A stretch of 64,000 bases of DNA. Origin: Thermoplasmatota archaeon (GTDB lineage: Archaea; Thermoplasmatota; Thermoplasmata; UBA10834). The translations under genes and the position numbers were made by a program. Shown piece after piece: positions 21,606 through 47,918 of the stretch. The stretch lies in assembly GCA_018818785.1 (NCBI GenBank), contig JAHIRF010000005.1, positions 207,093 through 271,092 of the forward strand, given 5' to 3'. Every line of letters begins with the position of its first letter. Position 1 is the stretch's first letter. The notes under the pieces were generated by a model, which did not search any database, was not told the DNA's origin, and was given only the letters and a program-made list of their open reading frames with translations.

Positions 21606-23036
21606 TCAGCTGTTCTGGATCTTCCTGAAGAACCCGTCGAGCTTCGATAACTCCTCTTCCGTCACCAGAGGCGTCTTCGGTTTGCTCAATATCCTCTTCA
21701 CCTCTTCGCTCGCTCTTCTGATGAGCGATCCGCGCTTGTCCTCGCTCATCCTGTGCTCGATGGATGCTTCTGGGCGCGTCGATGCAATGATTTCCTTTCT
21801 GAACCTCGCCATGGTATGCCTCTTGCCGATGAAATTGCCGTCCTTCGCCGCGTCCCTGATAGTATCAAACGAGATCGCATCGTCATCGGTGTCGAACTCT
21901 CTCGCGAACTCTTTCGCGACGTCCCATACCCAAGCATCGGCCACCAGCTGCTCGAACGAGGCCCCGGTCGCCATGTCGATCCCACCGAACCCCGAGGCCA
22001 GGTCGGATGGTACCATGCTCTGGATCGAGATGTGCGGCACCCCTTCCCATACATTGCTCATACCATGCGCCAGATTCTCCAGACCGACGCCTATTACCAT
22101 CGTCGGCAGTCCGTAGGATCTCCCCATCTGTCCGGCGCCGACCCTTATGAGTGGTACTTCGAGAGCGCCGTAGTCGATTGAGCCGGTCTTGAGATCTGCC
22201 GGACTCGAGTCCGTGCTGTATATGAACGGGGATCCGCTCTTCGCAGCCTGCGATATGACTAGGCTGGCCAGATTCTCCGCGTTGACCTGGGTCAATGTGC
22301 CCGAGACTGTCACTGGTGAAGATAGGCCGGTGACGGACGCGGCCATCGCGACTATCGGTATGCCGCCACGTGAGAGTTCCACTTGTCCTTCCACCAACCC
22401 CTTCTCGAAGGTGAGCGGTGATATCGGGCATTCTACGGCTGAGAAGATAGGTCTCTCGGCGAGTGCCTCCTCTCCTCCCGTGAAGATCGAGGCCATCTCG
22501 ATCATCCATCGTGCCTCCTCGGTGCCCGTGGCCATAGCCTGGATGTGTTTCGTTGTATGCATCATCGAGACCTTATGCTCGGTTATCCCCTTCAACCTCA
22601 CAGGTTGTTCAAGGGCTCCGACCATGGGCCAGAAGAAATCTACCTGTGGCAGCTCGTTGACCAGTATGGCGAAATCCCTGAGGTCGTCCGATGTAGCGGA
22701 CCTGGACTCCCCGGTCACAAGGTTCTTCACGAAAACTCCTTCGCCGCCGTTGGTGACATACATCCTATCGGGTGAGGGTATACTGATATCGTTCTTCCCA
22801 TCCCTGGACGCCAGAAGCACCGGTCGCTTAGCATCCGACACGGCCGACATCACCATCCTCTCATCCAGAAGCAGCCTCTTGCCGTCATCAGACCGCCGCG
22901 CGCCCGCCTTTTCGAGCATTTCAGATACTTGCTGGCTATGGACCTGTATGCCCACTTCGTCCAGCAATCTCAACGATACCCCGTGTATGCGCGCTATTTC
23001 CTCCTTGTCTAAGAACTCCAAACGTCCCCTCGCCAT
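21606..23036 (-). CDS. MttB-superfamily (trimethylamine methyltransferase-like) protein with no in-frame TAG
   Basis: N-terminus RLEFLDKEEIARIHGVSLRLLDEVGIQV is typical of the family. 476 aa from the ATG at 23036. The frame is uninterrupted. Confidence 0.8.
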   Translation of the reverse strand: MARGRLEFLDKEEIARIHGVSLRLLDEVGIQVHSQQVSEMLEKAGARRSDDGKRLLLDERMVMSAVSDAKRPVLLASRDGKNDISIPSPDRMYVTNGGEGVFVKNLVTGESRSATSDDLRDFAILVNELPQVDFFWPMVGALEQPVRLKGITEHKVSMMHTTKHIQAMATGTEEARWMIEMASIFTGGEEALAERPIFSAVECPISPLTFEKGLVEGQVELSRGGIPIVAMAASVTGLSSPVTVSGTLTQVNAENLASLVISQAAKSGSPFIYSTDSSPADLKTGSIDYGALEVPLIRVGAGQMGRSYGLPTMVIGVGLENLAHGMSNVWEGVPHISIQSMVPSDLASGFGGIDMATGASFEQLVADAWVWDVAKEFAREFDTDDDAISFDTIRDAAKDGNFIGKRHTMARFRKEIIASTRPEASIEHRMSEDKRGSLIRRASEEVKRILSKPKTPLVTEEELSKLDGFFRKIQNS

Positions 23037-23195
23037 CAGCAACACATCTCCTCTACGCCGAAGACCTGAAGCTCTCCATTTTGAATAATGTTTTGCTTTC
23101 TCGCGCCATTTTCGGTCATGTTTCTGACATAGACCGTCCATTCGTATCCCTGACAGTGCGCAATCGATGATACTTTGATATTGACTGGCACCATT

Positions 23196-34731: not shown

Positions 34732-35889
34732 ATGCCACTGGATTTCATCAGTAGCGCGCTCAACAGGAATAGTGAGCGATCGTCTTCCGAGCAATCGAAT
34801 GACGATCTCGAGATCGAGAAGATTGCAGCGGGCCTAAATGTCCGTATCAAACTAGTTGGTTGTGGTGGGGCCGGTTCGAATACCGTCACCAGGTGTTACG
34901 AGGACGATCTATCCGGTGTCGAGATGATCGCGATCAATACAGATGCCAAACATCTTCTATCCGTCAAATGCGGCCGGAAACTGCTCATCGGAAAGTTGCT
35001 CACGAGAGGCATGGGTGCCGGTGCTAGACCTGAGATCGGTGAGAAAGCCGCGATGGAGAATGAACGCGAGATAGGAGAGTTCATGAAGGAGGCGCAGATC
35101 GTCTTCATCACCGCTGGCATGGGCGGTGGGACTGGCACAAGTTCATCGTTCGTCGCATCGCGTCTCGCGAAAGAGGCACGTGCACTCACCATCGGGATAG
35201 TCACCCTTCCATTCAAATCAGAAGGCGAGATGCGGATGGAGAATGCGTTGTCGGGATTGACGCGCTTGTCGAAAGTATGCGACACCACGATCGTGATACC
35301 GAACGATACGCTTCTCGAACTAGTCCCCAACCTCCCTGTCCAGGCAGCGTTCAAGGTCGCAGACGAACTTCTTCTGCAGACAATAAGAGGGTTGACCGAG
35401 ATGCTCACCCGCTCCGGATTGGTGAATGTTGATTTCGCGGACCTGAGGACGATCATGGACGAAGGCGGAGTCTCGTTGATCGGTGTGGGCGAGTCGGATA
35501 GTGCGCCCGGCGACCGCATGGACGAAGCGGTCGAGGAAGCATTGACTTCGCCGTTGCTTGGGATGATGGATCTGAAAGAAGCCAAGGGCGCTTTGATAAG
35601 GGTCGTCGGTGGTCCGGACATGGCCATTGAAGAAGCAGCGAGAGCCGCGGAGATCATCTCTGGCAGATTGAGGCACAATGGTCGGCTTATCTGGGGTTGC
35701 TCTCTCGAACCGGAGATGTCTGGACGGGTCAAGATACTCCTCATAGCGACCGGGGCCAAATCGCAATATGTGCTTCGGAGAGATGGGGAAGATGCGGTCA
35801 TGCAGTCTGCAGGCCAGGATTACCGTGGCGAGATCAATCTCCCGCCGGATATCCGTTCGGACGAAGACCTTGCGATGTTCGTCAGATGA
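34732..35889 (+). CDS. ftsZ: Cell division protein FtsZ
   Basis: GCGGAGSNTV, tubulin signature GMGGGTGT, NDTLL, VNVDFADL. Confidence 0.93.
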   Translation: MPLDFISSALNRNSERSSSEQSNDDLEIEKIAAGLNVRIKLVGCGGAGSNTVTRCYEDDLSGVEMIAINTDAKHLLSVKCGRKLLIGKLLTRGMGAGARPEIGEKAAMENEREIGEFMKEAQIVFITAGMGGGTGTSSSFVASRLAKEARALTIGIVTLPFKSEGEMRMENALSGLTRLSKVCDTTIVIPNDTLLELVPNLPVQAAFKVADELLLQTIRGLTEMLTRSGLVNVDFADLRTIMDEGGVSLIGVGESDSAPGDRMDEAVEEALTSPLLGMMDLKEAKGALIRVVGGPDMAIEEAARAAEIISGRLRHNGRLIWGCSLEPEMSGRVKILLIATGAKSQYVLRRDGEDAVMQSAGQDYRGEINLPPDIRSDEDLAMFVR

Positions 35890-35898
35890 AACCAAGCG

Positions 35899-37803
35899 TC
35901 ATATCCCTAGAATGATGTGAGCCGTCGTTCCCATGATGAGTGCCAGCGAGACTGAGCCCAGCGCGACCAGGACCGTGCTCTTCATACCGAACTCCTTCAC
36001 CATGACAGCGAATGCAGCGATGCACGGGAGGAATATGGCCATCACCAGCGCGAACACGAACATCTGTTCGGATGACAGCTCAAGCGCGAGATTGCTCGTG
36101 CCGAACAGTATCATCAACATCTGCAGAGCCATCTCCTTCCTCAGTATGCCGAACACCAGTGCGATCACGGTGACACCAGGAAGGCCTAGCATAGTCATCA
36201 TGACCCATTCTGAAGGGCCTATCAGTTTATCGAGCCAGCCAATGACCATCATCGTCTCGAGGATGATGCTTCCCGCAAGCAGAAGTGGGAATGCGATTGT
36301 GAGGAACTCCTTGACGCGCAGGTATGTCTTCGACAGTATCTGCATCAAGGATGGGGTTCTCAGGTCAGGTATCTCGAGGAATAACCCCGTCGGTTCGAAC
36401 TTGATCGTCTTGTGCATCGCATAGCCGAGCGTCATGAATATGCCGCCGAGTATGACGTATATCAGCAATGCCCACCAGACACCTGCGTAATTCCCGACGG
36501 TGCCAATGATGATCGCAGTCTGCGCGGAGCAGGGCACTGCGATCGTGATGAGTGTGGCGAGTATCAGCCGCTCTCTCTTCGACCCCATCGCTCTTGTGGC
36601 GAGTATTGCCGGCACATTGCATCCGTATCCGACGACCATCGGAATCACAGCTCGCCCGTGAAGGCCGAATCTGTGCATGACGCCGTCGAGCAATGAGACG
36701 ACCCTTACTAGATATCCCGTGTCTTCAAGGACGGCGAGCATCAGGTAGAATACCAGTATGTACGGGACAACGATCGCCAGCATCGCCTCGATGCTCAGAT
36801 AGATTCCTTCGACGATCCCTTTGGCCACATCACTGGATAGACCGTTCTCGAAATCGTTGAAGGGCTGTCTGGCAATATCAGAATATGTCGATACGAGCAA
36901 CCCCTCGATCGCTCCACCGACGAATACCAGGGTCAGAAATACTGTTGCCAGTACTGCGACGAGGATAGGTATTCCGGTTGCGGGTCGAAGAGTGAGGTCT
37001 GAGATCAGGCTCCTATCCCGCCTCGCTGTGGCCACCTTGCCGACGGCTTCGCTTGAGATTCTGCCAGCTTCCCCGAACCTGTCCCTTTGGATGTGGACTA
37101 TGATGTCTTCACCATGTTGCTTCTTGAAGTCCTTTTGCATCTCCTCGATGAGCGTCGCGATCTCTGGCGTGGCTTTCTCCGACATCTTCGGGTCCCCGCT
37201 CAGCAGCCTGATCGCAGCTGCTCTCAACGGGATGTCCCATCTATTCTCATCAAGGCGAGATTCGATCCTTCTGATCATCTCCTCTATGTGCGAATCGTAG
37301 CGGACCTTGAACTTGCTCTTCTTTCTCAGCTGGACCGAAGTGAACAGGAGCGAATCGATCCCTTCGCCAGTGGTCGCCACGGTCGGGATGACCGGAATCG
37401 ATAGGATTCTTTCGAGCCGTTCGACATCTATTATGAGCTTCTTCTTCCTCATGATGTCGTACATGTTCAGCGAAGCGACGACATTGTATCCTGATTCTAT
37501 GAGCTCAAAAAGGAACACAAGGTTCCTCTCCAACCTGGAGGAATCGAGCACTGCGATGACCGTATCTGGTCTCCTCTTGAAAAGAAGATCCGTGGCAACC
37601 CGCTCATCATCAGTATTCCCCTCGAGTGAATATGTTCCTGGTAGGTCGATCACTGTGATCGTGGACCCCATGAACTTGGCCCGTCCTTCTGAGAATTCGA
37701 CCGTGGTTCCGGGATAGTTGGAGCTGATGACTCCTACCCCAGTCAGTTTTCCGAATATCTGGCTTTTACCTACATTCGGATTCCCTGCGAGAGCGATCTC
37801 CAT
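35899..37803 (-). CDS. feoB: Ferrous iron transporter FeoB
   Basis: N-terminal G domain (ALAGNPNVGKS, DLPGTYSL) followed by a polytopic membrane domain. 634 aa. Confidence 0.92.
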   Translation of the reverse strand: MEIALAGNPNVGKSQIFGKLTGVGVISSNYPGTTVEFSEGRAKFMGSTITVIDLPGTYSLEGNTDDERVATDLLFKRRPDTVIAVLDSSRLERNLVFLFELIESGYNVVASLNMYDIMRKKKLIIDVERLERILSIPVIPTVATTGEGIDSLLFTSVQLRKKSKFKVRYDSHIEEMIRRIESRLDENRWDIPLRAAAIRLLSGDPKMSEKATPEIATLIEEMQKDFKKQHGEDIIVHIQRDRFGEAGRISSEAVGKVATARRDRSLISDLTLRPATGIPILVAVLATVFLTLVFVGGAIEGLLVSTYSDIARQPFNDFENGLSSDVAKGIVEGIYLSIEAMLAIVVPYILVFYLMLAVLEDTGYLVRVVSLLDGVMHRFGLHGRAVIPMVVGYGCNVPAILATRAMGSKRERLILATLITIAVPCSAQTAIIIGTVGNYAGVWWALLIYVILGGIFMTLGYAMHKTIKFEPTGLFLEIPDLRTPSLMQILSKTYLRVKEFLTIAFPLLLAGSIILETMMVIGWLDKLIGPSEWVMMTMLGLPGVTVIALVFGILRKEMALQMLMILFGTSNLALELSSEQMFVFALVMAIFLPCIAAFAVMVKEFGMKSTVLVALGSVSLALIMGTTAHIILGI

Positions 37804-37812
37804 CCCATCACC

Positions 37813-38481
37813 TCATGCAGCTCTCGTAATCCGGAGAATCGCCCCTATTTCCCTGGCGATCGCCACCTTCGTGCCTTTCAGGGAGACTATGATCGGTCCT
37901 CCCATGGGGATCTTCTTCTCCAACTTCACCTCAGAGCCTGGTACGAACCCCATCGCGAGTATCCTGCACAGTTCGTCCTTGCTGTTGGATTCCAGATGTG
38001 AGATGGTGCCCAGTTCCCCCTCGTCGAGATCAAGCAGAAGGACCGTGTCGTCCGCGCATTTCTCACAAGGGATCCCCCTGCCACATTTCGGTATCTTCTT
38101 GCCGTGGGGACATTCGGATGGATGGTTCATCATCCTGCAGAGCTGCTTCTCTGCCTCATCTGATAATGCATGCTCCATCTTGCACGCCTGCTCGTGCCTC
38201 GAATTGCCTCTGATCCCGACGTAATCGTGCAAGAACCTCTCGAGGAGCCTGTGCTTTCTTGTTACGTTGCACGCGATCCTGCGGCCTTTAGGCTTCAGCG
38301 TGACACCCTTGTACTTCTCGTGCCTGATATAACCCTGTTTGGCGAGTTTCTGTATCATTTCGGTCACGGATGATGGTGAGATGGCCAGCGCATCCGCTAT
38401 ATCTGAAGTCCTTGCGAGGCCGCCATCCTCTGTCAGATTGTACACTATCTTGAGATACTGCTCAGTTATCTCCGAGGCCAT
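37813..38481 (-). CDS. DtxR/IdeR-family metal-dependent regulator with a C-terminal FeoA/SH3-like domain
   Basis: wHTH N-terminus (ITEQYLKIVYNL...TSDIADALAISPSSVTEMIQKL), a dimerisation/metal region with HE..H and a Cys cluster, and a FeoA-like tail (LAMGFVPGSEVKLEKKIPMGGPIIVSLKGTKVAIAREIG). Lies 9 nt upstream of feoB. Confidence 0.85.
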   Translation of the reverse strand: MASEITEQYLKIVYNLTEDGGLARTSDIADALAISPSSVTEMIQKLAKQGYIRHEKYKGVTLKPKGRRIACNVTRKHRLLERFLHDYVGIRGNSRHEQACKMEHALSDEAEKQLCRMMNHPSECPHGKKIPKCGRGIPCEKCADDTVLLLDLDEGELGTISHLESNSKDELCRILAMGFVPGSEVKLEKKIPMGGPIIVSLKGTKVAIAREIGAILRITRAA

Positions 38482-38491
38482 CTGACGGGAA

Positions 38492-38513
38492 TTAGGCTGA
38501 CCTAAATTATAAA
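38492..38513 (-). promoter_or_regulatory. Iron-box-like palindrome abutting a TATA box, upstream of the dtxR-feoB genes
   Basis: Read on the coding strand: TTTATAAT-TTAGGTCAGCCTAA-(10 nt)-ATG. The palindrome arms TTAGG/CCTAA (38492-38505) match the outer arms of the IdeR/DtxR consensus. The TATA-like box is at 38506-38513. Confidence 0.45.
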
Positions 38514-38571
38514 TCTTGCTCCTGTAAACCGGCGTCTTCGAGGCCGCTGAACACGGTATCTGAGCGCGAAT

Positions 38572-38763
38572 TCACTTCCGATGGTCAAGGTACCGCTTGA
38601 ATGGGTATGTTTTCAGCTTGATATCCCTCTCACCATCCGGCGGATACTCTTCATCGTATTCCATCCTGGCAACATCGAGTTCCTTCTCGTTCAGAGAGGA
38701 TGGCTCTATTCCGTAATTCTGAACGAGCCAAGTCTCAAAGTCGAATTTCAACCGAACCACCAT
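38572..38763 (-). CDS. Hypothetical small protein (63 aa)
   Basis: ORF between the ATPase genes and dtxR on the same strand. Acidic. No family recognised. Confidence 0.35.
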   Translation of the reverse strand: MVVRLKFDFETWLVQNYGIEPSSLNEKELDVARMEYDEEYPPDGERDIKLKTYPFKRYLDHRK

Positions 38764-38806
38764 GAAAGGAAGCGGCGGATCGGGAGTTAAATCCTTCCAT
38801 GAAAAG

Positions 38807-39694
38807 TCATAGTTCTTCGAGCAGCGCAGATAATCGTTCCCAACACTGTCTCATCGCATCGATGGCAGGACAATTCAACCGATCATCGACGACGTTTCCC
38901 TTCGCCATCTCCTCGGCCAGGATATCATCGTAGGGTATCTTTCCGAGGAAATCCACACCTCTCTCCATCGCCATCCTCTCAATGGAATCAGCGGCACCGA
39001 CATTGATGTCACACCTATTCACGATGATGGCTGCTCCGACTTTGAAACCATGTAGCAAATCCAGTACCCTCTCGAGATCGTTCAGACCAGAACTGGTCGG
39101 TTCGGTGACAATCACCGCGATGCTCGCGCCTGACAATGACGATATCACCGGGCACCCAACCCCTGGTGGACCATCGACCAGGATCAATTGGAGCCCTTGA
39201 TCCATTGCCACCATTCGAGCTTTTTGTTTGACAATCGCCACCAATTTTCCGGAGTTCTCGGCACCTGGCTCCAAAAGTGCATGTACCATGGTTCCGCAGC
39301 TGGTATCGGAAACGAACCAATCGCCGACATACCTGTCCTTCATATCGATTGCTCCGTTGTCACATATTCTAGCACAAAGAGAGCATCCTTCACACGCATC
39401 TGCATCTATCTTGATCCTACCCAGGCAGGGATTGCCCGTGCTTTGGATGGCATCGAATCTGCATGCGGGGATGCACCAACCGCAGCCAGAGCACTTGGTG
39501 TCATCTATCGTCGCAATCTTCGAGCCGATGAACCGTTCACTCTGGACGATCTTTGGTTTGAGCATCAGGTGAAGGTTCGGTGCATCTACATCACAATCCG
39601 CCAACACCTTATCCTTCATGACAGTGGCCAGATATCCCAGGAATGTGGTCTTGCCAGTGCCACCCTTTCCGCTTATTACCACGATCTCCTTCAC
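38807..39694 (-). CDS. MinD-superfamily P-loop ATPase with an inserted 2x[4Fe-4S] ferredoxin domain (COG1149-like)
   Basis: Deviant Walker A ISGKGGTGKTT. CSGCGWCIPACRFDAI and CEGCSLCARICDNGAI. ATGA overlap with the upstream paralogue. Confidence 0.85.
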   Translation of the reverse strand: MKEIVVISGKGGTGKTTFLGYLATVMKDKVLADCDVDAPNLHLMLKPKIVQSERFIGSKIATIDDTKCSGCGWCIPACRFDAIQSTGNPCLGRIKIDADACEGCSLCARICDNGAIDMKDRYVGDWFVSDTSCGTMVHALLEPGAENSGKLVAIVKQKARMVAMDQGLQLILVDGPPGVGCPVISSLSGASIAVIVTEPTSSGLNDLERVLDLLHGFKVGAAIIVNRCDINVGAADSIERMAMERGVDFLGKIPYDDILAEEMAKGNVVDDRLNCPAIDAMRQCWERLSALLEEL

Positions 39695-40551
39695 CGAGAC
39701 ACCTCCTTCAGGATGCGGTCCCTCAACTCAGAGAACACTCCGGCATATTCCGGAAGGCTGGAGATGAGTCCTCCTTTCGAATAGATCTCGGCGATCCTCC
39801 TATCTAGGGGTAGTGTGCCAGCTATCGGCATATCGACCGATTCACAAAATTTACGGATATCAGGGCCCGGAAGCCCCTCCTTGTTGACGAACACCATGGT
39901 TGGTATGTTGAGCTTCCTCGTCACGTTGAGCGCAAGTTTCAGGTCGTGCAATCCGAACGGAGTGGGTTCGGTCACCAGGACGCAGATATCCGATCCTCTG
40001 ATACTCTCCACTGCTGTGCACGCCGTGCCCGGCGGACAATCTATTATCGTGACAGTGTCAGGAGGTAACGCCTTCTTCACCCTCCTGATCAATGAAGGGG
40101 CCGAAACCTCTCCCACCTTCAATCTCCCATATAGGAGGTTCAGTATGCCTCCTTTGGCTCTGATCACAGCACCCATCAAGTGATCTTTTTCCTCGATTGC
40201 GCCATCTGGACAGAGCATCGTGCATGCGCCACATCCGTGGCAGAGTTCATCGAATACCATGACTCTCTTCGGTAGCACGACGATGGCATGGAATTCGCAT
40301 ACCTCTGCGCATCTTCCGCATAACGTGCACAGGTCGTCATCTACCTTCGGCACGGGTCTGTGGGCAGGTTCCTCGGATTCAGAGGTCGCATTCGTGAAAA
40401 TGTGGCAGTTCGGTTCCTCCACATCCAGATCGACAAGTAGAGAACCATCGGTCATCGCTGCGAGGTTCGTGGCGATCAAGGTCTTTCCAGTACCCCCTTT
40501 TCCGCTGGCTACCGCTATCCTGATGGAATCTCCTCCATTATCTGTTGCCAT
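39691..40551 (-). CDS. MinD-superfamily P-loop ATPase with an inserted 2x[4Fe-4S] ferredoxin domain (COG1149-like), second paralogue
   Basis: ASGKGGTGKT. CTLCGRCAEVCEFHAI and CHGCGACTMLCPDGAI. Confidence 0.85.
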   Translation of the reverse strand: MATDNGGDSIRIAVASGKGGTGKTLIATNLAAMTDGSLLVDLDVEEPNCHIFTNATSESEEPAHRPVPKVDDDLCTLCGRCAEVCEFHAIVVLPKRVMVFDELCHGCGACTMLCPDGAIEEKDHLMGAVIRAKGGILNLLYGRLKVGEVSAPSLIRRVKKALPPDTVTIIDCPPGTACTAVESIRGSDICVLVTEPTPFGLHDLKLALNVTRKLNIPTMVFVNKEGLPGPDIRKFCESVDMPIAGTLPLDRRIAEIYSKGGLISSLPEYAGVFSELRDRILKEVSR

Positions 40552-40553
40552 GA

Positions 40554-40913
40554 TCAGTGATGATGATCCTTACATGCGGTGTCATGGGTCGCAGGCTGCA
40601 ACTTGCCATCGGTCCAAAGCTTGATGGCATCTCTCGCAGTCCCGGTCGCTCCCACGAAGACATTGATGCCGAACGAGCTGAGCATGTCTATGGCTTTCGG
40701 CCCAAGACCTGCACATATCATGATCTGCGCTCCAGTCTTCGCTATGTGTTCAGGGGGCTTCCCTAGGCCACCCATGTGCTCACTTCTATTCTTCACGATC
40801 AACACGTCGTTGGTGTCAAGGTCTACTACCGTGAATGTCGGCGCGCGGCCGAAGTGGTCGCTCACCATGTCATCTAATCCGCCTTTTTCCATTGTTGGTA
40901 TGCAGAGTTTCAT
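40554..40913 (-). CDS. NifX/NifB-C-terminal-like (dinitrogenase FeMo-cofactor-binding fold, COG1433) protein
   Basis: MKLCIPTMEKGGLDDMVSDHFGRAPTFTVVDL... is the typical family N-terminus. His-rich tail CKDHHH. Confidence 0.8.
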   Translation of the reverse strand: MKLCIPTMEKGGLDDMVSDHFGRAPTFTVVDLDTNDVLIVKNRSEHMGGLGKPPEHIAKTGAQIMICAGLGPKAIDMLSSFGINVFVGATGTARDAIKLWTDGKLQPATHDTACKDHHH

Positions 40914-41071
40914 CCGTTCGCACTCCTCTTCTTCTCAATCTTCTTTCTGAATCTCATCCCCCACCCTTCTCTGACGATATTGGTGGAGCCGCAGCAAAAG
41001 CATTTCGCAGGTTTGTCTGGCATGGCGATGTCGAGCCCGCATGCCGCACATCTGAACCTGAGGATCCTCAA
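40910..41071 (-). CDS. Unlisted 53-aa zinc-ribbon micro-protein (or 37 aa from the internal ATG at 41023)
   Basis: My own translation: (TTG)MRILRFRCAACGLDIAMPDKPAKCFCCGSTNIVREGWGMRFRKKIEKKRSANG*. It has a CxxC-x12-CxCC pattern. The TTG overlaps the upstream TGA (TTGA) and its TGA overlaps the downstream ATG (ATGA). It is below the ORF-track length cut-off. Confidence 0.5.
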   Translation of the reverse strand: MRILRFRCAACGLDIAMPDKPAKCFCCGSTNIVREGWGMRFRKKIEKKRSANG

Positions 41072-41535
41072 TCTCTGTCCTCCTCATTCCTCGCCATTTT
41101 CTCTCTGCGGTCTCTTATCGCATTCCTGAAAGCTATTATGGCGAGGTTGGCGCAGTGCTTGTGATCCTCCGGAAGTCCACCTAGCGAGTGTTCGAGTTCC
41201 TCTGCCCTCAACTTCTCCGCCTCATCGATGGTCTTGCCAATGATCATCTTGGTCAGGCGGCTCCCGCAAGCTATCGTTGCGCCACAACCATCGGTATAGA
41301 AAGTGCACCGCGTTATGCGGTCTTTCTCCACTTTTATCCATATCTCCATGGTGTCCATGCATAGACCGTCAGCGACACCGTTCCCGTCCGCCTCGTCGAT
41401 GGGACCGATGTTCGCTGGACTTCTGAACTCGGCGATGACATCCTTTGAGTAGATCGCATATTCATCCGCATCGATCGCGACCATTATGTTATCGACGAGT
41501 CTGTCGAGCTCAGAAGACTCCCGGTTATTGTTCAT
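41068..41535 (-). CDS. IscU/NifU-N-like Fe-S scaffold protein
   Basis: Three scaffold-type cysteines in ADGLCMD, TDGCGATIACGS and HKHCANLAIIAFRNAI. Start candidates are 41574, 41550, 41535 and 41484. Confidence 0.75.
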   Translation of the reverse strand: MNNNRESSELDRLVDNIMVAIDADEYAIYSKDVIAEFRSPANIGPIDEADGNGVADGLCMDTMEIWIKVEKDRITRCTFYTDGCGATIACGSRLTKMIIGKTIDEAEKLRAEELEHSLGGLPEDHKHCANLAIIAFRNAIRDRREKMARNEEDRD

Positions 41536-41542
41536 GGTGTTT

Positions 41543-41965
41543 TCATCCATTCCTATTCGGTCCGTGAGGGCCATGTCCGTGATGTCCGGGTGATGTCCAT
41601 GATCCCATGCGCGTCAGTTCGCCTCTCCTATACGCTTCAATCGCGGCACTGACAGTCCCAACGGGTTTCATGAAGGCAGCGATGCCACTCCCATCCAGAA
41701 CCATGAATGCGTTCGGCCCCAGATTTCCAGTGATCACCACTTTTACTCCTAGGTCCACTACCTTTTGCGCTGCCTGGGTCCCAGCCCCGCTTGCGGAATC
41801 TTGGCCAGGGTTTCTCACCGCCCGATGTGATCCATCTGCTTCGACAACGATGAAGTAACTGCATCGGCCGAATCGTGGATCCAGAGGCGATTCCATCGAA
41901 TCGCCCGTCGCGCTCACTGCTATGCATTGACTATTCTCGTCTTTCTCAACAATTTTCGAATTCAT
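41543..41965 (-). CDS. NifX-like (COG1433) protein with a His/Gly-rich tail
   Basis: SPLDPRFGRCSYFIVVEADG...GAGTQAAQKVVDLGVKVVITGNLGPNA. Tail SPGHHGHGPHGPNRNG. ATG at 41965. Confidence 0.75.
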   Translation of the reverse strand: MNSKIVEKDENSQCIAVSATGDSMESPLDPRFGRCSYFIVVEADGSHRAVRNPGQDSASGAGTQAAQKVVDLGVKVVITGNLGPNAFMVLDGSGIAAFMKPVGTVSAAIEAYRRGELTRMGSWTSPGHHGHGPHGPNRNG

Positions 41966-41969
41966 ATGA

Positions 41970-42278
41970 TCACTCACAACATTGAGTTCCTCGCATAATG
42001 GTGCCACAACCTGGACACAGCATCCTGTTGCATGGCACACCCCTCGTCGTGTGGGGCACTCTCTTCCCGCACTTCGGGCACACGCACGTGGGCGACCCGA
42101 ACGCGGAACAGTCATCACTCGAGGGTTCTTGGTCCTCTGTCATTCCTTCCCCTCCAGAATCTCTGAGGGCCCACCCGTCTCGGATTACCAAGATTGCATC
42201 CACACCGACATGGTCTGCCCCTGGGCCCGAATCCTGGGTCACCGTATTGGCGATATTCTCGATTGTATCCTGCACCAC
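41970..42278 (-). CDS. Small protein with a C-terminal double zinc-ribbon (CxCPxCG...PC...CPGCG)
   Basis: C-terminus CVCPKCGKRVPHTTRGVPCNRMLCPGCGTIMRG. GTG at 42278 or ATG at 42143. The upstream half overlaps an alternative R/G-rich frame (see findings). Confidence 0.55.
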   Translation of the reverse strand: MVQDTIENIANTVTQDSGPGADHVGVDAILVIRDGWALRDSGGEGMTEDQEPSSDDCSAFGSPTCVCPKCGKRVPHTTRGVPCNRMLCPGCGTIMRGTQCCE

Positions 42279-42300
42279 GTCCTCTGTTGCCTCTCCTCAT

Positions 42301-43173
42301 CTAGTTCACCTCTTCCTCAACCAACTCGATAATCCTGTCAGTGATTGGTTCGAAGGCCTTCGATATGCCATTCGAGCCGCCCGCAAATGGTTTGCCATCA
42401 TCACCGCTCCTGGCGATCTCGGGATCAATGGGGAGCTTTCCAAGTATCGGTATGGACATATCTCTTACCGCTCTCTCGACTCCGCCGTCCTCGAACAGTT
42501 TTATCTCCTTTCCACAATGCGTGCATTGCAGGCCATACATGTTTTCAACAAGTCCCAGTGTTCTCAGTCCGACTGCCTTCGCGAAATTGATGGACTTCCT
42601 GACGCTTAGGAGGGCGACATCCTGAGGTGTTGTCACTATGATTGTTCCGTCAGGGGATGGGACGAGCTGGGCTACGCTCAATGGCTCGTCTCCAGTGCCT
42701 GGAGGCAGGTCGACGATCAGATAGTCCAGTTCGCCCCAGGACACCTCTTCGAGGAACTGCTTTATTGCGCCCATCTTCACAGGCCCTCGCCAGATCACCG
42801 GTGAGTCTGTGTCCTTGAGCAAGAATGCGATTGAAACGACCTTGATCGATGAGCCGAACATGGCTGGCACGATCTTCCCGTTCTCGTCGATGTTCAATGG
42901 CAGGTTCGGCAATCCCAACATCTTGGGCACGCTTGGGCCATGCATGTCCGCGTCAAGCAAGCCGACCTTCCTTCCCTTCTTAGCCAGCCCTGCCGCGAGG
43001 TTCACGGCAACGGTGGATTTTCCAACGCCGCCCTTACCGCTCATCACTATGATCTTGTGCTTGACCCCCCTGAGGTTCTCCTCGGCGCTGTTGCCGGATT
43101 TCTCCTTGGAGGATGCCGCCTGCTTCCCAGTGAATGCGTTCATTCTTTCACCACTCTCCGTATGATCTAGCAT
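42301..43173 (-). CDS. Mrp/NBP35/ApbC-family Fe-S cluster carrier ATPase
   Basis: VMSGKGGVGKST deviant Walker A and the CxxC motif (QCTHCGK) typical of the family. Alternative ATG at 43143. TAG stop. Confidence 0.88.
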   Translation of the reverse strand: MLDHTESGERMNAFTGKQAASSKEKSGNSAEENLRGVKHKIIVMSGKGGVGKSTVAVNLAAGLAKKGRKVGLLDADMHGPSVPKMLGLPNLPLNIDENGKIVPAMFGSSIKVVSIAFLLKDTDSPVIWRGPVKMGAIKQFLEEVSWGELDYLIVDLPPGTGDEPLSVAQLVPSPDGTIIVTTPQDVALLSVRKSINFAKAVGLRTLGLVENMYGLQCTHCGKEIKLFEDGGVERAVRDMSIPILGKLPIDPEIARSGDDGKPFAGGSNGISKAFEPITDRIIELVEEEVN

Positions 43174-43553
43174 GTGAACACGCGGTCTGCGTCAGCAGCC
43201 TCAGCTGCAAAATCCATGAGATTGATGAACTCGACCCCTTCGATGAACGCTTTCTTGTCTATGCCCCTTGATTCCAGGCAAGGAATGCAGACCTGGACTT
43301 TGCCACCGCTCTTCACGAACGCGTCGATCATCTGCTTCACAGGTGCCATGCCCTCTACCGACTTCAGCTTCTCCGCAAAACCCTTCTGGACAAGCTTGAC
43401 CCCGCTCCCGGTCAAGAACACCTTCGTCTTGATGCCAAGCGCGGATGATGCGCCTGCGCAAGCGAAGGCCATGGTCGCTCTTTCGACGTCCTCGTCTCCA
43501 TGCGTTCCGACAACTATGAACGACTTCTTGCTGTAATCCTTAGTCTCTGACAT
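43167..43553 (-). CDS. DsrE/DsrF-like (COG2044-type) protein
   Basis: FIVVGTHGDEDVERATMAFACAG...KVQVCIPCLESRGI. 128 aa. TAG stop. Confidence 0.6.
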   Translation of the reverse strand: MSETKDYSKKSFIVVGTHGDEDVERATMAFACAGASSALGIKTKVFLTGSGVKLVQKGFAEKLKSVEGMAPVKQMIDAFVKSGGKVQVCIPCLESRGIDKKAFIEGVEFINLMDFAAEAADADRVFTC

Positions 43554-43627
43554 TCTGATACCTATGTGATACTAGCGGCATCAGGGTCAAGTCGAGAACG
43601 GCGAACAAGTTCGCCGCCCGCCAAATA

Positions 43628-44230
43628 TCAGTCTTCAGAAAGGCCGAATCTGTTCTCCTTGTAGTACGCACTGTATATGGCCCCGATGGGGTTGTGCGCG
43701 AGCACCCGGTCCTTCACTATGAGCGTCGTCACAGGTGCTTTCGAGTGCTTCGTGAAGAGTATGTCGTGACCGATGCACAGACCGATAGCGATGTTCATTT
43801 CAGTGCCAACCTCTGCGAGGCACATGGCCTGTCCGATCGGATCGCAGACTGCTTCATTAGCATCATCTCCATGCATCTTGACGACTCCAAGGTCCGCCTT
43901 GTCTATTCCGCAGACCTTGCAGCATACTGAATGGACTTCGAAGTCGTTCTTTTGGAGGATGTCAGTGATGGTCCTTGCCTCCGATGAAAGGCCGACACAG
44001 AACGCCACCCCGAGCTTCTTCATCCCCATCTCCTTTGCGTAGAGAATCAGTTCTTCGAGCCTCGTCAACTTCATGTAGTGCTCGGCCTCGATCTTGCCTG
44101 AGACGAGCATGGATTCGAGGTCGAACCCCTCGTACTCTCTCTTGGCCTTCTCCGCCAAGCCGAAGCAGTCTTTACCCTCGTAGCAGTCCTTCTTGTCGCA
44201 GTGCGCGCAATCCGTTCGCATCTTCCTCAC
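43628..44230 (-). CDS. DUF1847-like Cys-rich putative metal-binding protein
   Basis: N-terminal CAHCDKKDCYEGKDC cluster plus conserved internal Cys (SVCCKVCG, AVCDP). 200 aa. Confidence 0.55.
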   Translation of the reverse strand: MRKMRTDCAHCDKKDCYEGKDCFGLAEKAKREYEGFDLESMLVSGKIEAEHYMKLTRLEELILYAKEMGMKKLGVAFCVGLSSEARTITDILQKNDFEVHSVCCKVCGIDKADLGVVKMHGDDANEAVCDPIGQAMCLAEVGTEMNIAIGLCIGHDILFTKHSKAPVTTLIVKDRVLAHNPIGAIYSAYYKENRFGLSED

Positions 44231-44250
44231 CGTCCCTTTTCGCAGCAGTA

Positions 44251-44886
44251 TCAGCAGATCTCTCTAATATGGCTCGCAACGAGCTTCCTCTGGGCTCTTC
44301 GCAAGATGACATCGAGAGTCGCCTTTGATATCTCCAGCTTCTTCGCGAGCTTATCGAGCGTGATCTTCCTCGGAATCTCGAAGTACCCGAACTGGAACGC
44401 GATCTGGAGCACTTTCTCTTGAGCCACGGTCAGTTCGGAGACCGTTCTCATGACCGATACTTTTTCCACCTCGACCGTGCAACCTAAATTCTTGACCTTG
44501 GCCACAAGGTCTGTCAGGACCGCTGCGTTCGGAGCTATCACATTCCATTGCATCACGCCGTTCTCGCGGTTGGATGCGGAATCTAGGAAACATCCCGAAT
44601 CGGCCATCAGCCTGCAGGCTGCACAAGTCTGGAGCTCAACGGTCCCAATGTGTCGGCCGGGTCCTGCGCTGGTGAGCTGCACGTTGCAGTTCGGTTCGAT
44701 TGCGCGGATCTTCTCGGCGAGTTCCTCCTGGGTGATCCCAGGATCCGCATCTATCTGGAGCAGACTCTGTCCCCCGGTTCCGTTCTTCGGTATGCATCTG
44801 AGTATCTTCACTGAGAGATCGCAACTGCTCGCCAGGCACCCTATCCAGTTGCCTGGTATCTTGATAAGGAGCGATGCGGATCTCAA
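44251..44886 (-). CDS. Transcriptional regulator with a C-terminal HTH_10 (bacterio-opsin-activator-type) domain
   Basis: LTVAQEKVLQIAFQFGYFEIPRKITLDKLAKKLEISKATLDVILRRAQRKL. The N-terminal domain carries Cys (LQTCAACRLMADSGCF). Confidence 0.75.
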   Translation of the reverse strand: MRSASLLIKIPGNWIGCLASSCDLSVKILRCIPKNGTGGQSLLQIDADPGITQEELAEKIRAIEPNCNVQLTSAGPGRHIGTVELQTCAACRLMADSGCFLDSASNRENGVMQWNVIAPNAAVLTDLVAKVKNLGCTVEVEKVSVMRTVSELTVAQEKVLQIAFQFGYFEIPRKITLDKLAKKLEISKATLDVILRRAQRKLVASHIREIC

Positions 44887-45245
44887 GCCCGATCACCCGT
44901 TTCCTTTCCTCGCCTCGATCGATTCCGACCATGGTCCTTTCGCGCGTCCGGGTCGATTGTGTGAGGGACATTTCTCGCGATCTTCAATGCTGCGCCATCG
45001 ATCAACGATTTTGCGGACTTGTGTCTAGCGCTCGACAATATCCGATTGAAAGTCGGTTGCGATACGTCCATCTTCTCTGCGGATTGTCCTTGTGAAAATC
45101 CTTCTAGGTCTGATAATCTGAGTGCTTCGAGCTCGTCCAGTTCCATCTCTATGATCGACAGTTCGCTCAAAGGAGTCCCCTGGGGTTTGAAAATCTTATG
45201 GTTCGGATCCAGGCAGATCTTTCTGCATCTTTTCGGTCTAGGCAC
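44883..45245 (-). CDS. DUF134/UPF0251 (COG1342) predicted DNA-binding protein
   Basis: MPRPKRCRKI...FKPQG...ELEALRLSDLEGFSQGQSAEKMDVSQPTFNRIL is the classic family sequence. GTG start. 4-nt overlap with the next gene. Confidence 0.8.
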   Translation of the reverse strand: MPRPKRCRKICLDPNHKIFKPQGTPLSELSIIEMELDELEALRLSDLEGFSQGQSAEKMDVSQPTFNRILSSARHKSAKSLIDGAALKIARNVPHTIDPDARKDHGRNRSRRGKETGDRA

Positions 45246-45247
45246 GG

Positions 45248-45267
45248 TTATGAATAATAATTCATAA
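45248..45267 (-). promoter_or_regulatory. Perfect 8-bp-arm palindrome between a TATA-like box and the first gene of the cluster
   Basis: TTATGAAT-aata-ATTCATAA lies 3-22 nt upstream of the GTG at 45245. A TATA-like CTTTAAGAT is at 45271-45279. Confidence 0.35.
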
Positions 45268-45335
45268 CTACTTTAAGATTTCCCCCGAATGGCGATTGCC
45301 TGATATCATTCGACGTCAAATCGGGATAATGGATG

Positions 45336-45408
45336 TGGGCCCAACCGGATTTGAACCGGTGATCTACGCCGTGTAAGGGCGTTGTCATAACCGCTAGACC
45401 ATGGGCCC
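45336..45408 (-). tRNA. tRNA-Val (anticodon TAC)
   Basis: The reverse complement gives acceptor GGGCCCA/TGGGCCC, anticodon stem ACGCC/GGCGT with loop CTTACAC, and T-arm ACCGG-TTCAAAT-CCGGT. No encoded CCA. Confidence 0.9.
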
Positions 45409-45462: not shown

Positions 45463-46044
45463 TCATCGCTTCGCAGCATCGAAACCCATGGCGAATGCCT
45501 GGAGGTTCTCCTGTAGTCTCCTTGGAATGTTCATCTCGAGCGCCTTCTCGAAATGCTCCCTCGAGATTCCTGTCACTCCTGTCCCGACTAGCGCTCCTAT
45601 CATGACTACGTTCGAGGACATCGGCACGCCGGCCTTCTTTGCGACCTCCCCCGAGTCGATCATGAAAACACGAGCCGAGGTCTCTTCCATCTTCTTCTTG
45701 ATCTCATCGAGACCAGGATACCTCATCTTCTGCGTGGACACGCTTAGGGGCACGACCCTCTCGGTGGAGCTGATGACCACGGTCTTCTTGGACGACTTGC
45801 AGACCGCTCTCTCGGTCTCGAGGAGTTCAAGCGAGAGTATTACATCCGCGTTGCCGTCGGTTATCAATGGACTTGAGTGGTCACCGATCCTCGCAGTGCA
45901 GACGACGGACCCGCCTCTCTGGGCCATGCCGTGCGTCTCGCTCATTATCACGCCTTTGCCCGCTAGTATCGCTGCATCGCCGATTATCTTGGATGCGGTG
46001 ATTATCCCCTGGCCACCCACACCTACGAGATAGATATCGACCAT
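45463..46044 (-). CDS. iorB: Indolepyruvate:ferredoxin oxidoreductase subunit beta
   Basis: MVDIYLVGVGGQGIITASKIIG...ETHGMAQRGGSV. The ATG shares one base with the iorA TGA (TGATG). Confidence 0.88.
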   Translation of the reverse strand: MVDIYLVGVGGQGIITASKIIGDAAILAGKGVIMSETHGMAQRGGSVVCTARIGDHSSPLITDGNADVILSLELLETERAVCKSSKKTVVISSTERVVPLSVSTQKMRYPGLDEIKKKMEETSARVFMIDSGEVAKKAGVPMSSNVVMIGALVGTGVTGISREHFEKALEMNIPRRLQENLQAFAMGFDAAKR

Positions 46045-47918
46045 CACTGCACCTCCTTGATCGCCTTGTATGGGCAGACCTCGGCACATACTCCGCAACC
46101 CGCGCATTGAGCCTCGTCTATGGTCTGCACCTTGTCGACGCTCGATATCGCTGGGCACTGGAACTTCGTGACACAGGTCCTGCACTTCTTGCAGTCGGCC
46201 TGGTCGATGAAGTGCTTCTTGATGATGGCCCCTTTCTCGTCCCTCTTTGCGATGAGGGCGCACTCTCTTCTGGCGATTATGACGGTGATGCTATCCTGAG
46301 CGAGCGCCTCCTTGATGGTCTCGGTCATCAAAGAGACACCATACGAATCGACGGTCCTTATCCACTTCACTCCACATCCTTTCACGACATCCTCTATCGG
46401 CAAGGATATCGCATCGGGGTTTAACGGGTCTTTGCCGCTACCTGGGTGAGGTTGATGTCCGGTCATCGCGGTCGTGCGGTTGTCGAGGATCATCAACAGG
46501 AACTTGTGTCTTTGGTGGACCGCATTCACAAGTCCTGGTATACCGGAATGGAAGAATGTGGAATCGCCGATGAATGAGATGACGGGCAGGTCGTTTACCT
46601 TCGCAAGACCTCCTGCAGTGCCAACGCTTGAACCCATGCATACAAGGAAGTCCGCAGTGCTGTACGGCGGTGCGACGCCCAATGTGTAGCAGCCGATATC
46701 CGATGCGAAGATCGCCTTCTTGTTAGTGGCCTTGTTGACCGCGAAGTATGTCGCGCTGTGTGGGCACCCTGCACACAGTACTGGCGGGCGCTTTGGCAGA
46801 TCTTCAGGGAGTTCGCATTTCTTTCGGTCTCCCGCGCTTCCAAGACCGAATGCATTTCTCAAACCTTTCGCCACGATATCCTGATCTAACTCGTGCGCTC
46901 TCGGGAACACTCCATCGAGCTTCCCTACCACCTTGGTCTTCACCCCATCTCTCTGGATGATAGCCCTTATCGCAGTCTCCAGAATCGGTTCGAGCTCCTC
47001 TACCACAGTGACGATCTCGTGAGACTTCAGGAATTCTGTAACTTTTCTGACAGGCAGCGGATTGGAGAATCCCAGCTTCAGTAGGTCGACTGACAGGGAA
47101 AGGTTGACTGCTGCATCCGAAGCGTAGTTCGCGGCGACGGATGATGCTATCATACCGTGCTTCTCGGAACCGCCGTTTATTCTGATGGATTTGTTGAACT
47201 CCGAAACCTCAGCGATCTCTTGAGCCTTCTTGAGTTGCTCGAGCAACACCAGGTGCCTGACCCGAGCGACTGCAGGGACCGTCACGAATCTCGTGGGATC
47301 CTTGACGAACTCCTTCTTCTTTGGACCTTGGATGATCTCTCCCACATTGACAGGCCCGCGCACATGCGACACGCGCGTAGTTGTGCGTAGCATGACCGGT
47401 TGCTCAAGCTTTTCAGAGATTTCGAAAGCCTTCTTCGTCATCTCGTAGCATTCCTGAGGTGACGCAGGCTCGAAGAGTGGGAACCCTCCGAGAAGTGAAT
47501 AGTACCTGTTGTCCTGCTCGTTCTGACTGGAGTGACATGACGGATCATCCGCGGTGACGAGCACGAAGCCGCCTCTAGTGCCTGTGTATGCGAAAGTCAT
47601 CAGAGGGTCGGCAGCGACGTTGACTCCCACATGTTTCATGCTGACGATTGCTCTCACGCCCGAGGCCGCCGCGCCCATGGCGATCTCGGCTGCGACTTTC
47701 TCGTTGACCGAATATTCGAAGTATATGCCCGCATCCTTGGCTACACGCGCGAGCGTGTCGCCTATCTCGGACGCTGGCGTGCCTGGATATGTAGTGGCGA
47801 CTGATATCCCCGCTTCCAAGGCCCCCCTCGCGATCGCCTCATTCCCGAGAAGAAGGATCTTGGATCCCGGTTCGGCTGACAGAACCTTGTCCATGGTGTC
47901 CCTGTTAACGATTTCCAA
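46044..47918 (-). CDS. iorA: Indolepyruvate:ferredoxin oxidoreductase subunit alpha
   Basis: TPP-enzyme core (GDSTFFHSG) and two C-terminal 4Fe-4S motifs (CKKCRTC...CP, CAGCGVCAEVCP). 624 aa. Confidence 0.9.
   Translation of the reverse strand: MEIVNRDTMDKVLSAEPGSKILLLGNEAIARGALEAGISVATTYPGTPASEIGDTLARVAKDAGIYFEYSVNEKVAAEIAMGAAASGVRAIVSMKHVGVNVAADPLMTFAYTGTRGGFVLVTADDPSCHSSQNEQDNRYYSLLGGFPLFEPASPQECYEMTKKAFEISEKLEQPVMLRTTTRVSHVRGPVNVGEIIQGPKKKEFVKDPTRFVTVPAVARVRHLVLLEQLKKAQEIAEVSEFNKSIRINGGSEKHGMIASSVAANYASDAAVNLSLSVDLLKLGFSNPLPVRKVTEFLKSHEIVTVVEELEPILETAIRAIIQRDGVKTKVVGKLDGVFPRAHELDQDIVAKGLRNAFGLGSAGDRKKCELPEDLPKRPPVLCAGCPHSATYFAVNKATNKKAIFASDIGCYTLGVAPPYSTADFLVCMGSSVGTAGGLAKVNDLPVISFIGDSTFFHSGIPGLVNAVHQRHKFLLMILDNRTTAMTGHQPHPGSGKDPLNPDAISLPIEDVVKGCGVKWIRTVDSYGVSLMTETIKEALAQDSITVIIARRECALIAKRDEKGAIIKKHFIDQADCKKCRTCVTKFQCPAISSVDKVQTIDEAQCAGCGVCAEVCPYKAIKEVQ

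Follow-up and report, generated by a model that had tools for sequence, protein, structure and literature searches.

A Thermoplasmata variant of the ORP-type gene cluster and its possible role in iron–sulfur cluster handling

What does a tightly packed array of genes for ferredoxin-bearing ATPases, NifX-like proteins, an IscU-like scaffold and an Mrp carrier do beside a ferrous iron importer in an archaeon? We addressed this question for a block at positions 35899-45268 of a 64-kb stretch of DNA from a Thermoplasmatota archaeon (hereafter the window, meaning the whole stretch), checking its gene families by Pfam and NCBIfam profile searches. Minus-strand genes follow one another without a break from 35899 to 45245 in the open reading frame (ORF) list of the window, and all 15 minus-strand ORFs described in an initial annotation, which had been made from the sequence without database searches, are present at their positions (Table 1). 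The profiles likewise bear out the domain families named there; the 63-aa, 53-aa and 102-aa ORFs matched no Pfam family.

The block contains an ORP-type cluster

The best NCBIfam model for the Mrp protein of the block (290 aa) is MrpORP (NF041136; 359 bits against a cut-off of 450, over profile positions 2-254 of 365), and this match provided the lead to the orange protein (ORP) complex. The ORP cluster of Desulfovibrio vulgaris Hildenborough comprises orp5-orp4-orp3 and orp7-orp8-orp9 (DVU2103-DVU2109). Two of its products, Orp3 and Orp4, are MinD-like ATPases that each carry a pair of [4Fe-4S] motifs. The orange protein itself is Orp8, which is NifX-like and binds a Mo-Cu-S cluster; in Orp9 an Mrp protein and a NifX-like domain are fused, and Orp5 has a small [2Fe-2S] protein as a relative (PMC6345978). 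Orp5 may be a small cysteine protein rather than a NifX-like one. Orp3, Orp4 and Orp8 co-purify, and MrpORP passes iron–sulfur (Fe–S) clusters to them in vitro (PMC6345978, PMC8359166). The orp operons are turned on at low redox potential by OrpR, an Fe–S cluster regulator, and an archaeal origin has been proposed for the cluster (PMC8359166).

The initial annotation had held that the families of the block recur together without an assigned pathway. Their core is in fact that of the published ORP complex cluster, to which the archaeal homologues AF2378-AF2380 of Archaeoglobus have already been linked (PMC3949148, PMC8359166). By sequence, the ATPase pair, the two NifX-like proteins and Mrp of the block match the ORP complex cluster type, and what appears to be new here is a Thermoplasmata variant of a known system.

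The comparison was made with a metagenome ORP locus (L086 in our numbering of related loci) and with D. gigas ORP taken from a PDB alignment. In L086, genes for two ferredoxin-ATPases and a NifX-like protein come after that of an ORP orthologue, which shares 68% identity with D. gigas ORP. Shared features are a paralogous pair of MinD-type ATPases with two [4Fe-4S] motifs each, an ORP-family NifX-like protein (NifX2, in the role of Orp8), an Mrp/NBP35 carrier with Walker A and CXXC motifs (as in the P-loop part of Orp9), an occurrence in anaerobes only and an expression that is presumably tied to a cysteine- or Fe–S-based sensor. The window nevertheless holds a single co-directional array, whereas Desulfovibrio has two divergent sigma54 operons under OrpR and IHF. 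It also differs in its regulators (HTH_10 and DUF134, with archaeal TATA-type promoter elements), in an Mrp that is unfused to a NifX-like (Di-Nase) domain, and in its extra genes, which encode IscU-like, DsrE-like and DUF1847 proteins and two small Cys-ribbon proteins, with dtxR-feoB next door.

Conservation of the cluster

A scan of one genome per species found relatives in more than 514 species genomes, and 80 of these species loci were compared. They span Chloroflexota, Desulfobacterota, Bathyarchaeia, methanogens, Planctomycetota, Omnitrophota and others, and among the matches listed the closest homologues are in Thermoplasmata. The expectation that a co-directional, Fe–S-linked set would be conserved beyond this genome is upheld: the core recurs in 80 species-level genomes, and four further genomes of Thermoplasmata (L001, L002/L003, L006 and L007) keep the order of the genes at protein identities of 42-97%. 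This 12-gene order runs DUF134, HTH_10, (DUF1847), DsrE, Mrp, Cys-ribbon, NifX2, IscU, zinc ribbon, NifX1, ATPase a, ATPase b, and it continues into dtxR, feoB and a convergent FtsZ-family gene only in L001 and L006.

Co-location rates were obtained by comparing the window proteins with the ORFs of 32 loci that extend at least 6 kb to both sides of ATPase a, using the coordinates of high-scoring segment pairs. ATPase b lies near ATPase a in 100% of these loci, followed by NifX1 (91%), NifX2 (88%), Mrp (69%), the IscU-like scaffold (50%), DUF134 (44%), DUF1847 (16%), FeoB (12%) and DtxR (9%). HTH_10 and DsrE reach 6%. Both were found in Thermoplasmata loci only and are additions of that group, not general members of the set, the DsrE-like gene being conserved in L001, L002, L006 and L007 alone.

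No cysteine desulfurase had been seen in the block, and this absence extends further. A tblastn search with Escherichia coli IscS gave no match in the window, and motif scans gave none either. Across related loci the same probe, which did find a homologue in L051, detected no desulfurase-like gene in 84 of 85, with one positive.

Candidate promoters and the adjacent iron importer

Three separate candidate promoters, all kept in relatives, divide the block: a TATA element with a palindrome before the DUF134 gene, a motif before the DsrE-like gene, and a TATA element with an iron box before dtxR. The first of these carries a perfect 9-bp inverted repeat that is unique in the window (0.02 expected by chance) and is kept in L001, L002 and L006 despite proteins that are only 55-64% identical. 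It is a candidate operator of a leaderless promoter.

The second motif lies in the 74-nt spacer before the DsrE-like gene, where the initial annotation had noted a hairpin. The palindrome is indeed present at 43600-43615; its reading as an RNA hairpin does not hold, since among relatives the motif has the form GGC[GT][AG]A[CT]NTGTTCGCC, with an invariant right arm and an uncompensated left-arm G-to-T change in L002, L006 and L007. We therefore read the element as a DNA site; a role as operator or promoter of the main operon is likelier than one as an RNA structure. A terminator hairpin was considered at this position and rejected on the same uncompensated change, the lack of a U-run after it and an RNA fold z-score of -2.1.

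The third element precedes dtxR. We take TTAGGTCAGCCTAA to be an iron box from its likeness to the DtxR consensus, and its spacing to the TATA box is equal in L001 and L006. The unit has the makings of a DtxR-Feo regulon, with DtxR DNA-binding and metal-binding domains and the iron-box-like promoter palindrome. A second iron box, for example upstream of the main operon, was searched for across the window and not found. Since a conserved TATA box and iron-box palindrome of its own precede dtxR-feoB, the link of this unit to the cluster is one of adjacency and not of a shared operon, and the proposal that the whole block is iron-regulated was not sustained. Feo genes adjoin the cluster only in the two nearest relatives and, among distant loci, in about 10%. 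DtxR-family genes also occur in or beside the ORP-type clusters of L011, L025, L051 and L068 (Methanocellaceae, Altiarchaeota, Methanohalophilus and Nitrososphaeria), which hints at metal-dependent control in some lineages.

Behind the first promoter lie the DUF134, HTH_10 and DUF1847 genes. Judged by synteny alone, DUF134 is likely the counterpart of orp7; the order DUF134-ORP-Mrp is found in L073. Four cysteines of the HTH_10 sensor domain (C31, C88, C91 and C100) are conserved in the six orthologues aligned, and DUF1847 is spread over archaeal and Dehalococcoidia loci. The conserved operator-like motifs provide handles for studies of these regulators.

A proposed role in Fe–S cluster handling

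Our favored explanation, which we hold to be moderately probable, is that the block consists of two parts: an ORP-type cluster that handles Fe–S clusters made from Fe(II) and free sulfide (part A, 38807-45268) and, beside it, a separate dtxR-feoB unit (part B, 35899-38505). Part A would be the Thermoplasmata form of an anaerobe-specific ORP-type cluster. It would open with a regulatory unit, DUF134-HTH_10-DUF1847, under a promoter with a conserved palindrome, and continue with a long operon for the DsrE-like protein, Mrp, Cys-ribbon, NifX2, IscU-like scaffold, zinc ribbon, NifX1, ATPase a and ATPase b. Part B would be an iron importer that is apparently self-repressed through its iron box.

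We envisage four steps; for part A we infer what the substrate is, what ATP does and that sulfide is used. Under reducing, sulfide-rich conditions, Fe(II) and free sulfide would form Fe–S clusters on the IscU-like scaffold, on Mrp or on both, with no cysteine desulfurase. Mrp would then pass [4Fe-4S] clusters to the ferredoxin inserts of both ATPases, analogous to the in vitro transfer from MrpORP to Orp3-Orp4-Orp8. An ATP-dependent a/b heterodimer, together with the NifX-like and Cys-ribbon proteins, could hold, reduce or pass on a non-covalently bound inorganic Fe–S or metal-sulfide species. Finally, the cysteine-bearing HTH_10 protein and DUF134 would set expression, in parallel to the unrelated bacterial OrpR.

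Several points weigh against this reading. The transcription units are deduced from sequence motifs alone. The function of the ORP complex is itself unproven, and a part in dividing the cell or placing the septum is favored by its discoverers (PMC3897727, PMC4672049); a fold search places the model of ATPase a closest to MinD. The native ligand of Desulfovibrio ORP is a Mo-Cu-S cluster and not an Fe–S cluster, and homology to ORP was drawn from L086 and D. gigas ORP. For the IscU-like protein, the scores stay under every curated IscU or NifU cut-off (NifU_clost, 105 bits against 188; IscU, 74 against 192). A housekeeping SUF or SMS system and a desulfurase may also lie elsewhere in the genome, outside the window.

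In a 2026 review of Fe–S biogenesis, ISC, SUF, NIF, MIS and SMS are the only recognized pathways and ORP goes unmentioned (PMC13066941); the NifX-like proteins and ferredoxin-ATPases that surround the scaffold belong to none of the five. The block resembles MIS (MisS-MisU) and SMS (SmsCB) in having an IscU-like scaffold, perhaps of the MisU kind, and in the sulfide use without a desulfurase that is proposed here, as it is for SMS (PMC13066941, PMC12192291). It differs from them in lacking an adjacent MisS desulfurase and homologues of SufB and SufC.

A stronger version of this explanation, which we regard as unlikely, is that ORP-type clusters are a self-contained, desulfurase-free Fe–S machine distinct from ISC, SUF, NIF, MIS and SMS. 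Inorganic FeS, either imported or assembled from Fe(II) and sulfide, would be bound by NifX-like proteins with Gly/Arg tails and by the Cys-ribbon; ATP and low-potential electrons would let the ferredoxin-ATPase heterodimer convert or release it, and the IscU-like and Mrp proteins would deliver the clusters. If this were true, no version seen would be more complete than the Thermoplasmata form, which brings cysteine-based regulators of its own and has an iron importer beside it, and, given the omission of ORP from the 2026 review, a further Fe–S route of this kind would be new.

The question has some reach, as the ORP complex is encoded in more than 514 species genomes of anaerobic bacteria and archaea. 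An IscU-like gene in half of the loci, iron uptake genes or regulators in about 10% and a desulfurase in almost none, together with a small Cys-ribbon as a common core member and the conserved operator-like motifs, move the balance from cell division toward the handling of Fe–S clusters from free sulfide, without settling it.

NifX-like and Cys-ribbon proteins

The two NifX-like proteins belong to different subfamilies, and both match the C-terminal part of the NCBIfam MrpORP model. NifX1 finds its best PDB matches in 1t3v and 1o13 (E 1e-16), both of whose chains also end in DHHH; it shares the Cys-x-Asp-His-x-His end of the TM1290/PH0822 subfamily, and a C-terminal motif A-C-K-[DE]-H-x-H is common to the 17 orthologues compared. 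The top three PDB matches of NifX2 are 1rdu (TM1816, E 7e-15), 1eo1 (MTH1175, E 1e-13) and 2wfb (D. gigas ORP, E 1.4e-13); it is 37% identical to D. gigas ORP (E 2e-16).

The 102-aa Cys-ribbon is conserved only in its C-terminal ~45 aa, the N-terminus being acidic and non-conserved, and its true start is probably internal to the ORF. Its motif, CPxCG..PH..G.PC....CPxCG, recurs in 32 of 80 species loci. It never leaves the strand of the cluster, and its usual place is immediately ahead of ATPase a. Bacterial versions open with a Gly/Arg-rich stretch (MPRGDGTGP..GRG) that matches only the start of DUF5320, and L070 and L077 show a fusion of the entire unit with a NifX-like domain. We conclude from these alignments that the Cys-ribbon is a widespread, unnamed family and a common core member that has no dedicated Pfam model.

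These features bear on a possible storage function. Pyrococcus furiosus IssA, which stores thioferrate, has the same IPR003731/NifX-like domain, and NifX2 groups with MTH1175, one of its top PDB matches and a member of the IssA clade (PMC5524996). On this account NifX2, through its tail, and a Gly/Arg-rich Cys-ribbon would store polymeric FeS that the ATPases, IscU and Mrp mobilize. Gly/Arg-rich, IssA-like tails in 16 of 70 NifX2 orthologues, the Gly/Arg-rich starts of bacterial Cys-ribbons and the fusion of these units in L070 are consistent with it. We nonetheless consider it quite unlikely for the window. In IssA the pI is high and the tail is long, cationic, aromatic and rich in Gly, whereas the tail of NifX2 is short (~20 residues with one Arg, including the His/Gly stretch SPGHHGHGPHG) and the pI of the whole protein is 6.96; with the acidic N-terminus of the Cys-ribbon, the features that define IssA are thus missing here. 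IssA has also not been described with ferredoxin-ATPase partners.

A further kind of tail, long and coiled-coil-like (..EELEKLK..RIEELEK), is carried by the NifX2-matching ORFs of L009, L013, L017, L018, L021, L029, L037, L047, L068 and L069; it may be a DUF5320-type extension or a merged neighbor gene.

The ferredoxin-ATPase pair

The favored Fe–S reading assigns a central part to the two ATPases, which the initial annotation had proposed to be a heterodimer. ATPase a is 41% identical to the first ATPase of L086 and 30% to the second, whereas ATPase b is 45% identical to the second and 34% to the first. Each is thus closer to its positional counterpart, and the two are therefore ancient paralogues in fixed order. 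ATPase b follows ATPase a in every locus that has both and is directly adjacent in 55 of 74. A conserved pair of paralogues in constant a-then-b order fits a heterodimer; in Desulfovibrio, Orp3 is co-purified with Orp4 (PMC6345978).

Walker A, switch I, Walker B, the eight ferredoxin cysteines and C178 are invariant in the alignment of ATPase a, C178 across 23 homologues. This cysteine lies seven residues past the Walker B Asp in both ATPases (DCPPGTAC in a, DGPPGVGC in b). NifH has a cluster ligand in its switch II region, and the switch II cysteine here might provide the dimer interface with an additional metal site. The two proteins are of the same ATPase class as NifH, BchL and CfbC, with which they share a deviant Walker A that drives dimerization, Fe–S clusters and a switch II cysteine a few residues past the Walker B Asp. 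In contrast to these enzymes, their clusters would sit in an inserted ferredoxin domain and not at a NifH-like bridging site, and no NifDK- or BchNB-like partner is encoded; the Pfam family Fer4_NifH matches neither ATPase.

An AlphaFold (AF2) model of ATPase a (predicted local distance difference test, pLDDT, 91.8) was used in the fold search. MinD, ApbC, HypB and Cfd1 came out nearest and BchL lower, and none of the solved proteins in the search has the ferredoxin insert; the search did not separate a NifH-like from a MinD-like function.

This ranking, headed by MinD proteins, is compatible with a role in cell division, with the MinD-like ATPases and Mrp placing the division site or segregating cell contents and the Fe–S parts adding redox dependence. 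Such a role is the published ORP hypothesis, and MrpORP has been located at the cell pole (PMC6345978, PMC4672049, PMC3897727); an FtsZ-family gene is, moreover, convergent to feoB here, in L001 and in L006. We judge this role improbable. MinD-like fold matches are expected for any ATPase of the class, ApbC, HypB and Cfd1 scoring nearly as well, and the 2x[4Fe-4S] insert is always present. The neighbors are NifX-like, Mrp, IscU-like and Cys-ribbon genes, whereas the FtsZ-like neighbor, on the opposite strand, occurs in only 1 of 80 species loci. Scores against the MinD equivalog models lie below the cut-offs (minD_bact, 51 bits against a cut-off of 213; minD_arch, 45 against 202), and no homologue of MinC- or MinE-type partners was seen in the Pfam tables of L001, L002 and L004.

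Mrp, the IscU-like scaffold and the question of the metal

Mrp scores under the MrpORP cut-off and lacks the C-terminal NifX-like (Di-Nase) fusion that defines MrpORP; the NifX-like domains of the block are separate genes. Mrp is the counterpart of the P-loop domain of Orp9/MrpORP. True Mrp-NifX fusions occur in L027, L033 and L060, and some Desulfobacterales loci with such a fusion keep an adjoining IscU-like gene. The IscU-like translation has ligand positions in GLCMD, GCGATIAC and HKHC (Cys-x-Asp, Cys and His-Cys), and an LPPVK motif was not found in it.

Iron need not be the only metal involved. As isolated, ORP binds [S2MoS2CuS2MoS2], according to work cited in PMC6345978, NifX2 is an ORP homologue, and a role in Mo cofactor synthesis has been suggested for AF2378-AF2380 (PMC3949148). 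The NifX-like proteins could accordingly bind thiomolybdate- or thiotungstate-type clusters, with the ATPases serving the maturation of Mo/W enzymes or detoxification. We consider this decidedly improbable, since the recurrent extras (IscU-like, Mrp and Feo/DtxR) point to iron. Inside the cluster, the Pfam tables of L001, L002 and L004 list neither a transporter for Mo/W nor a gene of molybdopterin synthesis, and beyond the cluster in related loci the homologues of block genes are limited to regulators, Feo and FtsZ-like genes.

A chance neighborhood of unrelated Fe–S-related genes is highly improbable for the block as a whole and ruled out for its core, whose order recurs in 80 species-level genomes of many phyla, with the 12-gene order in four Thermoplasmata genomes at protein identities of only 42-73%; only dtxR-feoB, the 63-aa ORF and the FtsZ-like gene are linked in the closest relatives alone.

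The small 53-aa zinc ribbon is kept in all five Thermoplasmata loci and weakly resembles FmdB/Zn_ribbon_8-like proteins. Small proteins of this kind (MPIYEYxCxxCG..CPxCGS..TCC) are encoded inside bacterial clusters (L012, L013, L016, L020, L023, L024, L026, L031, L037, L052, L058 and L079) and are candidates for the 'small iron-sulfur protein of the ORP operon'.

Gene layout and flanking genes

The close packing described at the outset, with spacers of 20, 74, 43 and 90 nt, was confirmed from the ORF coordinates. Four junctions are 4-nt overlaps (ATPase b/a, NifX1/53-aa ribbon, 53-aa ribbon/IscU-like and HTH_10/DUF134); the gaps are 2 nt between ATPase a and NifX1, 4 nt between NifX2 and the Cys-ribbon and 22 nt between the Cys-ribbon and Mrp. 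With longest-ORF starts, the IscU-like and NifX2 genes overlap by 32 nt and the Mrp and DsrE-like genes by 7 nt. The start of NifX2 was corrected to an ATG at 41965 (140 aa), replacing that of a 191-aa ORF.

Table 1. Features of the block and selected neighbors (window coordinates)
Feature	Coordinates	Strand	Family or profile match	Remarks
MttB-family gene	21606-23141	-	Trimethylamine methyltransferase (MttB) family
FtsZ-family gene	34732-35889	+	Tubulin, FtsZ_C	Convergent to feoB
FeoB ferrous iron transporter	35899-37803	-	FeoB_N, FeoB_Cyto, Gate, FeoB_C
DtxR-family metalloregulator with C-terminal FeoA	37813-38481	-	PF01325, PF02742, PF04023
Iron-box-like palindrome TTAGGTCAGCCTAA	38492-38505	.		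Directly after TATA box TTTATAAT, ~10 nt before dtxR ATG
63-aa ORF	38572-38763	-	No Pfam/NCBIfam match	Between ATPase b and dtxR; status doubtful
ATPase b	38807-39694	-	MinD/ParA-type (CbiA/ParA), inserted 2x[4Fe-4S] ferredoxin domain (two Fer4)	Start overlaps stop of a by 4 nt
ATPase a	39691-40551	-	MinD/ParA-type (CbiA/ParA), inserted 2x[4Fe-4S] ferredoxin domain (two Fer4)	Orp3/Orp4 family
NifX1	40554-40913	-	Nitro_FeMo-Co (PF02579, E 1e-20)	TM1290/PH0822 subfamily
53-aa zinc ribbon	40910-41071	-	Weak Zn_ribbon_8 match (E 0.04)	RxRCxxCG..P..CFCCGS..REGW
IscU-like scaffold	41068-41574	-	NifU_N (PF01592, E 2e-27)	Match starts at residue 42, after ~40 N-terminal aa
NifX2	41543-41965	-	Nitro_FeMo-Co (PF02579, E 2e-21)	ORP/MTH1175/TM1816 subfamily; counterpart of Orp8
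102-aa Cys-ribbon ("double zinc ribbon")	41970-42278	-	No Pfam family	CVCPxCG..PH..RGVPC....CPxCG..M.G..C
Mrp/ApbC/NBP35-type Fe–S carrier ATPase	42301-43173	-	ParA/NUBPL (PF10609, E 4e-94)	GKGGVGKS Walker A; CTHC
DsrE-like protein	43167-43553	-	PF02635, E 1e-18	Cys motif VCIPCxxxRG
Palindrome GGCGAACTTGTTCGCC	43600-43615	.		In 74-nt spacer before DsrE-like gene
DUF1847 Cys-rich protein	43628-44230	-	PF08901, E 1e-53	N-terminal CxxCx4Cx5C and six more conserved Cys
HTH_10 regulator	44251-44886	-	PF04967, E 7e-19	N-terminal sensor domain
DUF134 (UPF0251) DNA-binding protein	44883-45245	-	PF02001, E 3e-21	GTG start; probable regulator
Perfect 9-bp inverted repeat GTTATGAAT-N4-ATTCATAAC	45247-45268	.		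Between TATA-like CTTAAAGT and DUF134 GTG start
tRNA-Val(TAC)	45335-45408	-		Between iorB and DUF134 gene; upstream edge of block

Of the relatives, only the closest one, L001, has the 63-aa ORF (93% identity), which L006 lacks; the ORF may not be a real gene. An Rfam scan of the block returned nothing besides the tRNA. Upstream on the same strand lies iorAB (45463-47918, minus strand), an indolepyruvate:ferredoxin oxidoreductase-like pair with POR, TPP and Fer4 domains that is not kept beside the cluster in any relative compared. No Fe–S biogenesis genes were seen in the window flanks, which encode, among others, an aconitase-family protein, an MttB-family protein, a subtilase, NFACT and an acetyl-CoA transferase.

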